From an uncultured bacterium (GTDB lineage: Bacteria > Bacteroidota > Bacteroidia > Bacteroidales > Rikenellaceae), in NCBI GenBank assembly GCA_905214725.1, contig CAJMNH010000004.1, positions 143,441-207,440 on the forward strand: 64,000 nucleotides of DNA, written 5' to 3'. Shown here in pieces: positions 49,626 through 49,890 of the stretch; position 1 is the first letter of the stretch, and each line of letters starts with the position of its first letter. A program made the translations under genes and the position numbers. The notes beneath the pieces were generated by a model. The model was given only the letters and a program-made list of their open reading frames with translations. It did no database searches and had not been told where the DNA came from.

Positions 49626-49642
49626 AAAATTTACATTATGTT
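49626..49642. repeat. Left arm of a perfect 17-bp inverted repeat (AAAATTTACATTATGTT)
   Basis: Exact reverse complement of 49874-49890. Ends 10 nt from the start codon at 49615. Confidence 0.9.
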
Positions 49643-49797
49643 CAGAATCGTCCTCTATTTAGTCTGATAGACAACTGTTTGAGTTACAATATAATATTGT
49701 ACAAACATTCGATGTTTCTGGAAGGCATATCATTAGGAAATTTGGACTTTTTTCAAAAAAACGCACAAAAAAAAGAACGTTTTTCGGAAATTATATC

Positions 49798-49805
49798 TAT
49801 ATTTG
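49798..49805 (+). promoter_or_regulatory. -7 promoter box TATATTTG inside the IR-bracketed segment
   Basis: Exact TAnnTTTG match, currently facing the plus strand and away from the fimbrillin-like operon. It is 320 nt from serS, which has its own proximal box. Confidence 0.45.
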
Positions 49806-49873
49806 CAAAATAGAAATTCTATTTGAGTGAACTTAAAGAGGTTACACGGGAAAATGAACATCCGACAAAATTA

Positions 49874-49890
49874 AACATAATGTAAATTTT
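49874..49890. repeat. Right arm of the perfect 17-bp inverted repeat (AACATAATGTAAATTTT)
   Basis: Exact reverse complement of 49626-49642. The arms enclose 231 bp of AT-rich DNA. Confidence 0.9.

Follow-up and report, generated by a model that had tools for sequence, protein, structure and literature searches.

A probable promoter inverton with dif-like repeat arms upstream of a surface-lipoprotein operon in Alistipes

A 265-bp intergenic element, located at positions 49626-49890 of a 64,000-nucleotide stretch of an Alistipes genome (Rikenellaceae; contig CAJMNH010000004.1, hereafter the window, 57% GC), is interpreted here as a promoter inverton which switches a surface-lipoprotein operon and which has been sequenced in its OFF orientation. 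The DnaJ encoded in the window belongs to a cluster at 90% identity, one member of which is named 'Alistipes sp.' by NCBI. We assign this interpretation a probability of roughly 0.8. The element lies between serS, on its right and encoded on the plus strand, and a three-gene lipoprotein unit on its left, encoded on the minus strand. Precise inversion between the arms of the orthologous element has been observed in contigs of a sister clade, while for the window species, in which it was not observed, inversion is inferred.

The element is delimited by an arm, AAAATTTACATTATGTT, and its exact reverse complement, which match at 17 of 17 positions and enclose 231 nt, as the original prediction had claimed. 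Its three parts are the following.

49626..49642, no strand: operon-side (proximal) arm, kept in the related clades B, C and D; breakpoint of the hybrid locus L002/L011 (see below)
49643..49873, no strand: proposed invertible segment of 231 bp, carrying the promoter box and lying here in the OFF orientation
49874..49890, no strand: serS-side (distal) arm, exact reverse complement of the proximal arm

Throughout the 64-kb window, this pair is the sole perfect inverted repeat of at least 14 nt with a spacer of 30-800 nt. In 40 first-order Markov shuffles, 0.375 14-mers and 0.1 15-mers were obtained per window, and no 17-mer. With up to 3 mismatches allowed, the arm sequence is found in the 64 kb at the two arm positions only, for 0.03 matches expected. 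The repeat is therefore non-random and far beyond chance.

Further support came from related genomes. Contigs of the window species were found by exact-protein look-ups, which gave 12 distinct public contigs covering the element (11 completely, 1 partially). The species is present in runs SRR29934364, SRR29934493, DRR874692, DRR874768, DRR875219, DRR875441, DRR875741 and SRR31716162, and in the samples underlying ERZ27240499, ERZ28595647, ERZ27258782 and ERZ28575289. Contigs encoding homologues of the 535-aa lipoprotein of the operon define three further clades, namely B (78% identity), D (69%) and C (about 54%). Among these relatives, which keep the operon, both arms are kept in clades B and C, as is the proximal arm in clade D. 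In the clade B contig L145, the arms read ATTAAAATTACATTATGT (18 of 18 nt paired, 234-nt spacer) and in the clade C contig L148, ATAAAAATTACATTATGT (17 of 18 nt, 233-nt spacer). The clade D contig retrieved, L197, begins inside the segment and shows the operon side only, with AACATAATGTAAATTT as its proximal arm. On the far side of the element, serS is found in clade C and in one clade B contig. The central part of the arm, TTTACA in the window, is TTACA in clades B and C, and as the same 1-nt difference is present in both arms, the arms have changed together. The motif shared across elements can be written AAAATT(T)ACATTATGT. When the elements are aligned in the orientation of their promoters, the arms are invariant and the conserved inner blocks include a T-rich stretch followed by a TAnnTTTG box. 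The equivalent boxes of clade B (TATTTTTG) and clade C (TACCTTTG) occupy the same alignment columns as the box of the window.

The comparison of these segments revealed both orientations. The clade B segment aligns directly to that of the window (z = 8.3, versus 1.7 when inverted), whereas the clade C segment aligns only when inverted (z = 11.8 against clade B and 3.9 against the window, versus 0.8 and 0.65 for the direct alignments). Within clade C itself, the segment is found in either orientation between identical flanks. In the ON contigs L148, L149 and L153, GATAAAAATTACATTATGT is joined to TCAAAACTATC at one end and GCGAAAATTTT to ACATAATGTAATTTTAATTTATC at the other, while in the OFF contigs L154 and L198 (and in the partial L151 and L152), the same GATAAAAATTACATTATGT is followed by AAAATTTTCGC, and GATAGTTTTGA precedes the same ACATAATGTAATTTTAATTTATC. 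In a shorter reading, L148 and L153 pass from ATTACATTATGT to TCAAAAC and from GAAAATTTT to ACATAATGTAATTTT, while L154 and L198 pass from ATTACATTATGT to AAAATTTTC and from GTTTTGA to ACATAATGTAATTTT. A symmetric pattern scan of a metagenome collection yielded 30 further contigs of clade C and 2 of clade B, all of them OFF, and the tally for clade C amounts to 3 ON and 34 OFF (about 8% ON). Since ON loci occur in two lineages, with 97-98% identity to the nearest OFF loci in each case, precise inversion between the arms has happened repeatedly within this species-level group. Contigs which break inside the segment (L015, L146, L147, L151, L152 and L197) hint at mixed orientations, but were not counted as evidence, given that the ends of short contigs may fall anywhere.

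Besides inversion, the clade C segments (L148 4665-4675; L155-L195) contain a tract of nine to ten G (G9-G10) just upstream of the T-rich block of the promoter, and, depending on the contig, 225 to 236 nt separate the arms. This variation could reflect slipped-strand variation on top of inversion, or homopolymer assembly errors.

The promoter motifs of the region, including the boxes which the original prediction had reported at 49798, 49866 and 50087, were all found at these positions and on the expected strands.

49780-49787, plus strand: conserved T-rich block TTTTTCGG, which precedes the -7 box
49798-49805, plus strand: exact Bacteroidota -7 box TATATTTG, in a conserved block and facing serS
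49866-49873, minus strand: weaker, minus-facing box TAATTTTG
50087-50094, plus strand: serS-proximal box TACCTTTG, in front of serS

Between 45813 and 49626, no other TAnnTTTG box is present on the minus strand, so that the three-gene unit is without a fixed consensus promoter, in line with what had been proposed. The sequence points to TATATTTG as the probable functional promoter of the unit. At the level of motifs, a promoter faces the regulated genes in one orientation only, and the exact box and its position are kept in clades B and C. It had been predicted that inversion would bring the box to about 49711-49718 on the minus strand, roughly 95 nt upstream of the small open reading frame (ORF) which begins the operon, and, with some uncertainty, that the sequenced state was OFF. 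Both proposals are supported by the ON state of clade C, where TACCTTTG points toward the operon and precedes the small ORF by about 100 nt. The weaker box TAATTTTG does exist, as had been noted; however, it has no conserved counterpart in clades B and C, probably occurs by chance and was ruled out as a functional promoter.

The proposed mechanism is as follows. A trans-encoded, site-specific tyrosine recombinase would pair the 17-bp arms and invert positions 49643-49873. In the OFF state, the promoter would read toward serS, itself preceded by its own box. In the ON state, the -7 box would be located at about 49711-49718 on the minus strand, some 95-105 nt upstream of the small ORF, and transcription would cross the proximal arm and proceed through the small ORF to the genes of the 535-aa and 599-aa lipoproteins, a hairpin at 47759-47789 possibly attenuating entry into the second of them. 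The segment would carry the only Bacteroidota-type promoter available to this minus-strand unit, and the outcome would be a mixed population whose members differ in their surface lipoproteins. The inverted junctions expected in the window species would read CAGAATCGTCC immediately after the proximal arm and CCGACAAAATTA (reverse) before the distal arm.

The genes proposed to be under this switch, and the hairpin between two of them, are listed below.

49457..49615, minus strand: small ORF (52 aa) with which the switched unit opens, of no known family
47797..49404, minus strand: 535-aa lipoprotein with signal peptide and lipobox MMKKLFLALLVTAIGFTSC; borderline Mfa_like_1 match (26.6 bits for a cut-off of 27)
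47759..47789, minus strand: terminator-like hairpin (pattern match only), a 13-bp stem followed by CCTTTTTAAA, directly 3' of the 535-aa gene
45813..47612, minus strand: 599-aa lipoprotein (580 aa in public contigs) with an N-terminal Mfa_like_1 match (37.7 bits) and a PI-PLC X match (30.7 bits)

The regulated genes encode surface structures, that is two lipoproteins with Mfa_like_1 matches, each containing a lipobox cysteine. The left arm had been described as ending 10 nt from the first start codon, which holds for the ATG at 49615; the start conserved in relatives is probably the second ATG, at 49603, giving a protein of 48 aa (MNRLFIQ...) which begins 22 nt from the arm. This small protein, for which no Pfam family was found, keeps the motif E-GFA-SGEG-I-P--D-EL in all four clades. 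Only 14 homologues of the 535-aa protein were found in a collection of 5.8 billion proteins. The hairpin downstream of its gene may serve as an attenuator between the two lipoprotein genes. Lacking a TAnnTTTG box of its own upstream, the 599-aa gene is likely the last one governed by the switch; the gene after it, encoding a U32 peptidase, has a separate box (45688-45695, minus strand). The fusion of Mfa_like_1 and PI-PLC X domains in the 599-aa protein is an unusual combination for a possibly phase-variable protein.

The arms also show an architecture which lies beyond the account of the original prediction, as does the recombination with a phage attachment site described below. Read on the plus strand, the proximal arm divides into AAAA-TTTACA-TTATGTT, which can be parsed as the last nucleotides of a XerC-type arm, a central region of 6 bp and the first nucleotides of a XerD-type arm, with its XerD-like half pointing into the invertible segment. 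Together with flanking nucleotides, the proximal arm parses as GTTAAATAAAA-TTTACA-TTATGTTCAGA and the distal arm as CCGTACAAAAA-TTTACA-TTATGTTTAAT. TTATGTTTAAT, which comprises distal arm and inner flank on the minus strand, matches the gamma-proteobacterial XerD arm TTATGTTAAAT at 10 of 11 positions, and TTATGTTCAGA, the proximal XerD-like half, at 8 of 11. The outer, XerC-like halves are weak and poorly dif-like. The sequence AATTTACATTATGTT is part of the predicted classical dif site of Sulfurimonas denitrificans (15/15 nt; PMC2731167), and the centre TTTACA is identical to that of the predicted epsilon-proteobacterial dif. In Bacteroidetes, dif sites have been predicted with a proteobacterial profile by Kono et al. 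(PMC3025954). While dif is expected as a single copy near the terminus, the window contains two inverted copies 231 bp apart between divergently transcribed genes.

Searches for the arm sequence elsewhere led to unrelated contexts. As a gapped pair, the exact arms of the window gave zero matches in the metagenome contigs of the Joint Genome Institute (JGI), from which it follows that the window species is absent from that collection. In GTDB genomes, the matches listed for the bare 17-mer (at least 119) include neither an Alistipes-labelled contig nor a locus at which the arm is present twice; about half of them represent one conserved, single-copy Prochlorococcus/Pelagibacteraceae site, and the rest appear to be scattered over unrelated, often AT-rich genomes. 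In dozens of Prochlorococcus and Pelagibacteraceae genomes (L026-L144), AAAATTTACATTATGTT is present as a single copy per genome, with conserved surroundings. In Prochlorococcus marinus MIT 9107 (L050 6273-6289), this copy lies between genes and close to the middle of the chromosome (about 814 kb of 1.70 Mb). This site could be of the dif type; the prediction of dif failed in Cyanobacteria, the phylum of Prochlorococcus (PMC3025954). In three unrelated metagenome loci (L158, L172 and L192), the 11-nt core TTACATTATGT / ACATAATGTAA lies within long near-perfect palindromes or 25-nt inverted repeats, which probably represent mobile or hairpin elements of other kinds.

The proximal arm is itself a live recombination site, at which a breakpoint was found. 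A locus assembled from run SRR35196735 (L002/L011) is 99.95% identical to the window from position 49642 leftward. Upstream of the junction, it carries relA, a HIT gene, an AT-rich kilobase, a gene for an XRE-type helix-turn-helix (HTH) protein and a 42-aa ORF, DNA which forms a normal chromosomal locus in other gut assemblies. A dif-like site, ATTTAACATAA-GATAAA-TATTACACC, is found directly 3' of the 42-aa ORF, its first half being the exact complement of the XerD arm TTATGTTAAAT. At the junction (L002 3974-3990, identical to L011 4488-4504), ATTTAACATAA-GATAAAT is joined to TTTATTTAAC; in L002, ATTTAACATAAGATAAAT, comprising the left arm and centre of the dif-like site, thus precedes TTTATTTAAC, the right part of the proximal arm. 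The crossover falls within the shared TAAAT, a 5-nt microhomology, and as the two parents have no more than these 5 nt in common there, a k-mer assembly chimera is ruled out as the origin of the hybrid. Recombination with another dif-type site at the border of the centre is thereby documented in one contig from one sample. The crossover appears to lie at the XerC-side border of the centre, as the mechanisms of Xer recombination and of integrative mobile elements exploiting Xer (IMEX) would give. Its reciprocal product would read from the segment into GAACATAATGTAAAT and then ATTACACCAAAT.

The partner of this recombination, ATTTAACATAAGATAAATATTACACC, is situated between the XRE-type HTH gene with its 42-aa ORF and znuA. 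While empty in L022 (1549-1576), it is occupied in at least L016-L020 by a 5.6-kb element (L016 8786-14404) with 16-nt direct repeats TTTAACATAAGATAAA, which encodes Microviridae-type major head, replication initiator and DNA pilot proteins and no integrase. For the microvirus proviruses of Bacteroidales, Krupovic and Forterre proposed integration at dif-like sites via the host XerC/D (PMC3091885). The attP junction of the provirus had no exact match in IMG/VR. Between the HIT and HTH genes of this locus (L011 2540-3700, equivalent to L016 about 6830-8000), a 1.1-kb non-coding region of 25-30% GC, in a genome of 52-57% GC, contains several TTAACATAA-like motifs and gave no tRNA or Rfam match. 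A second junction at the same position of the proximal arm is seen at a contig end (L150 1-138; ENA ERZ27954029 k141_200303), where ...GATGTC is followed by TTTTAATTTATC. The joined DNA consists of 138 nt of unrelated sequence with a hairpin and an operon-facing TTACCTTTG box, and neither a dif-like partner nor a match among the retrieved loci was found for it.

Regarding the enzyme, the sequence suggests a tyrosine recombinase because the arms have a dif-like core architecture. The original prediction had stated that no recombinase gene lies in the window, and its result held for the 35 of 55 selected window ORFs scanned against Pfam. Among the 32 selected ORFs of 147-859 aa, 25 were included in the scan, as were three operon or neighbouring genes; outside it were ORFs of 859, 225, 967, 180, 192, 301 and 170 aa, of which those of 301, 192 and 170 aa match genes of the orthologous locus L008 with non-recombinase Pfam families. 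As trans-acting recombinases are usual among the promoter invertons of Bacteroidales, a missing local recombinase is compatible with membership in this class. One of ten non-homologous metagenome matches to the same core, L157 (JGI Ga0256406_1003064, 5375-6640), has a perfect 18-nt repeat, ACATAATTTACATTATGT, with 232 nt between the conserved 11-nt cores and a segment of about 225 nt. A 279-aa tyrosine recombinase with the Xer-type pair PF02899 and PF00589 is encoded 20 nt from this repeat, which lies downstream of it, and a 1585-aa ORF devoid of Pfam matches follows the repeat. This locus is likely a separate inverton, which supports the class of the enzyme (a tyrosine recombinase of Xer architecture) and not the identity of the Alistipes enzyme. 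The best 8000 relatives of the L157 recombinase are of Clostridia type, and it was dropped as a route to the Alistipes orthologue. A further, tentative proposal, which we consider rather doubtful, is that the housekeeping XerC/XerD or a close Xer paralogue flips the switch instead of a dedicated invertase, the arm cross-recombining with the Microviridae dif-like site.

Collectively, the arms conserved across clades, the conserved -7 box and the clade C segment inverted between identical flanks support the assignment of this element to the Bacteroidales invertons, as had originally been suggested. Several observations weigh against a switch in the window species. All 12 public contigs, in addition to the window itself, are in the OFF orientation, and no inverted (ON) copy was found among these 12. 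In clade C, ON and OFF contigs originate from separate samples and lineages, and document repeated precise inversion and not rapid switching within a population; assemblies give the majority state, from which a switching frequency cannot be read. Direct reading of the sequence showed no canonical -33 TTTG at a spacing of 19-21 nt from TATATTTG, and the assignment of the promoter rests on its motif. Finally, no recombinase was found among the scanned ORFs or in the retrieved flanks. An alternative is a relic locked in the OFF state, in which dif-like or IMEX-type sites, or an ancestral inverton, remain and the operon is silent or expressed by read-through or a non-consensus promoter. The single orientation, the lack of a nearby recombinase and the dif-like arms, one of which recombined with a phage attachment site and not with its partner, would all fit such a relic. 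However, the arms are still identical at 17 of 17 positions despite flanks which have diverged between clades, which argues for ongoing selection or recombination. With about 8% of clade C loci ON (3/37), the lack of ON copies among 12 contigs is unremarkable, being expected about one third of the time even with an active switch. A relic appears unlikely.

The two other explanations are far less probable. A miniature inverted-repeat transposable element (MITE), or some other short non-autonomous mobile element ending in inverted repeats, would account for 17-bp repeats around a short, AT-rich, non-coding body, and the unrelated loci L158, L172 and L192, which share the 11-nt core, are indeed long palindromic elements. 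We nevertheless regard this as very improbable. The outer flanks (TTAAAT and TGTACG) show no target-site duplication, and no second copy exists in the 64 kb, even at 3 mismatches. In addition, the element occupies the same position between serS and the operon in clades B and C, and in clade D it adjoins the same operon; with operon proteins 54-78% identical, this common position indicates vertical inheritance. Inversion in place between identical flanks is, moreover, not the behaviour of a transposon. That the repeat is a product of chance, or a structural feature such as a long-range hairpin, a terminator or an RNA element, involving no DNA rearrangement, can hardly be credited. AT-rich intergenic DNA does yield more short repeats than coding DNA, but the shuffles produced no repeat of this length, the arms co-vary between clades and the segment has been seen inverted. 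Likewise, no Rfam family matches the region, the best hit (E = 0.9) being an irrelevant snoRNA.

A promoter inverton at this locus would belong to a well-described group. Inversion of promoters in front of surface-protein operons is a hallmark of gut Bacteroidales (PMC12632263). The switches at capsule, surface-protein, SusC/D and fimbrial-type operons of Bacteroides fragilis and Bacteroides thetaiotaomicron, and the PhaseFinder-type invertons of gut Bacteroidota, likewise consist of about 200-300 bp of intergenic DNA between inverted repeats. The window element, with 17/17-nt arms and a 231-nt spacer, has repeats around a short intergenic segment (under about 750 bp). It also shares with these invertons an internal TAnnTTTG promoter motif, the proposed control of surface lipoproteins, the dominance of the OFF state in assemblies and, probably, a recombinase acting in trans. 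It differs from those described in its host, an Alistipes species of the Rikenellaceae, and in adjoining serS instead of an invertase gene; moreover, while Bacteroidales invertons show inversion, orientation in the window species is known only as OFF (12/12 contigs). The dif-like arm core AAAA-TTTACA-TTATGTT seems to differ from the repeat consensus of B. fragilis Mpi. In Escherichia coli, the tyrosine recombinases FimB and FimE invert the promoter segment fimS, which turns type 1 fimbriae ON or OFF. The likeness resides in promoter inversion by a tyrosine recombinase controlling a fimbria-type surface structure, the recombinase class being, in the window, a deduction from the arms. fimS has 9-bp repeats, a 314-bp segment, adjacent recombinase genes and the accessory proteins IHF and Lrp, and has no sequence relationship to the window switch.

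Precedents for inversion driven by Xer enzymes are found in Mollicutes only: in Mycoplasma agalactiae, Xer1 acts at the vpma locus (PMC2268961), and in Ureaplasma parvum, XerC acts at the elements UU172 and mba (PMC3599477). In these systems, a Xer-type enzyme acts on short inverted sites and causes phase variation of surface proteins, which provides a precedent for dif-like inversion sites. In contrast to the window switch, they shuffle coding sequences or promoters among gene families, belong to another phylum and, in M. agalactiae, rely on a recombinase encoded at the locus; a Xer role in the window switch is suggested by the architecture of its sites and by one hybrid junction. Like dif and IMEX sites (PMC3091885; PMC2731167, PMC3025954), the window arm can be divided into a 6-bp centre and, on either side of it, portions of a XerC-type and a XerD-type arm, and the proximal arm has recombined with the attachment site of an integrase-less Microviridae provirus. 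While chromosomal dif is a single copy at the terminus, the two inverted copies of the window, 231 bp apart, would serve in inversion and not in dimer resolution or integration. The cwpV and flagellar switches of Clostridioides difficile, which depend on RecV (PMC2784873, PMC12282940), are likewise short invertible regulatory segments upstream of surface-protein genes. RecV is encoded away from these switches, and no recombinase gene was found near the window switch either. cwpV differs in relying on terminator formation in the leader and not on promoter orientation, and in belonging to a different phylum.

Promoter invertons are a main route of surface variation in gut Bacteroidales and have been characterised mostly in Bacteroides and Parabacteroides. 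Literature searches returned nothing on promoter invertons specific to Alistipes, and in the searched text of a gut inverton catalogue (PMC11892184), neither Alistipes nor the arm sequence was found. The inverton itself is of a well-known type; less ordinary are the resemblance of its arms to dif and the hybrid which one arm has formed naturally with a Microviridae attachment site. Alistipes is abundant in the gut and discussed in clinical contexts, and for this genus the locus represents a concrete and conserved switch, probably controlling a narrowly distributed pair of Mfa-like lipoproteins, and the PI-PLC domain of one of them could act on host or microbial lipids. More broadly, Xer-type enzymes may drive phase variation in Bacteroidota, and the arms of such switches may be rearrangement hotspots. 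If the switch is Xer-driven, cross-recombination between arm and dif would rewire the operon to a new upstream region, as in L002/L011, and dimer resolution, phage integration and surface phase variation would be coupled via one enzyme system in gut Bacteroidales.

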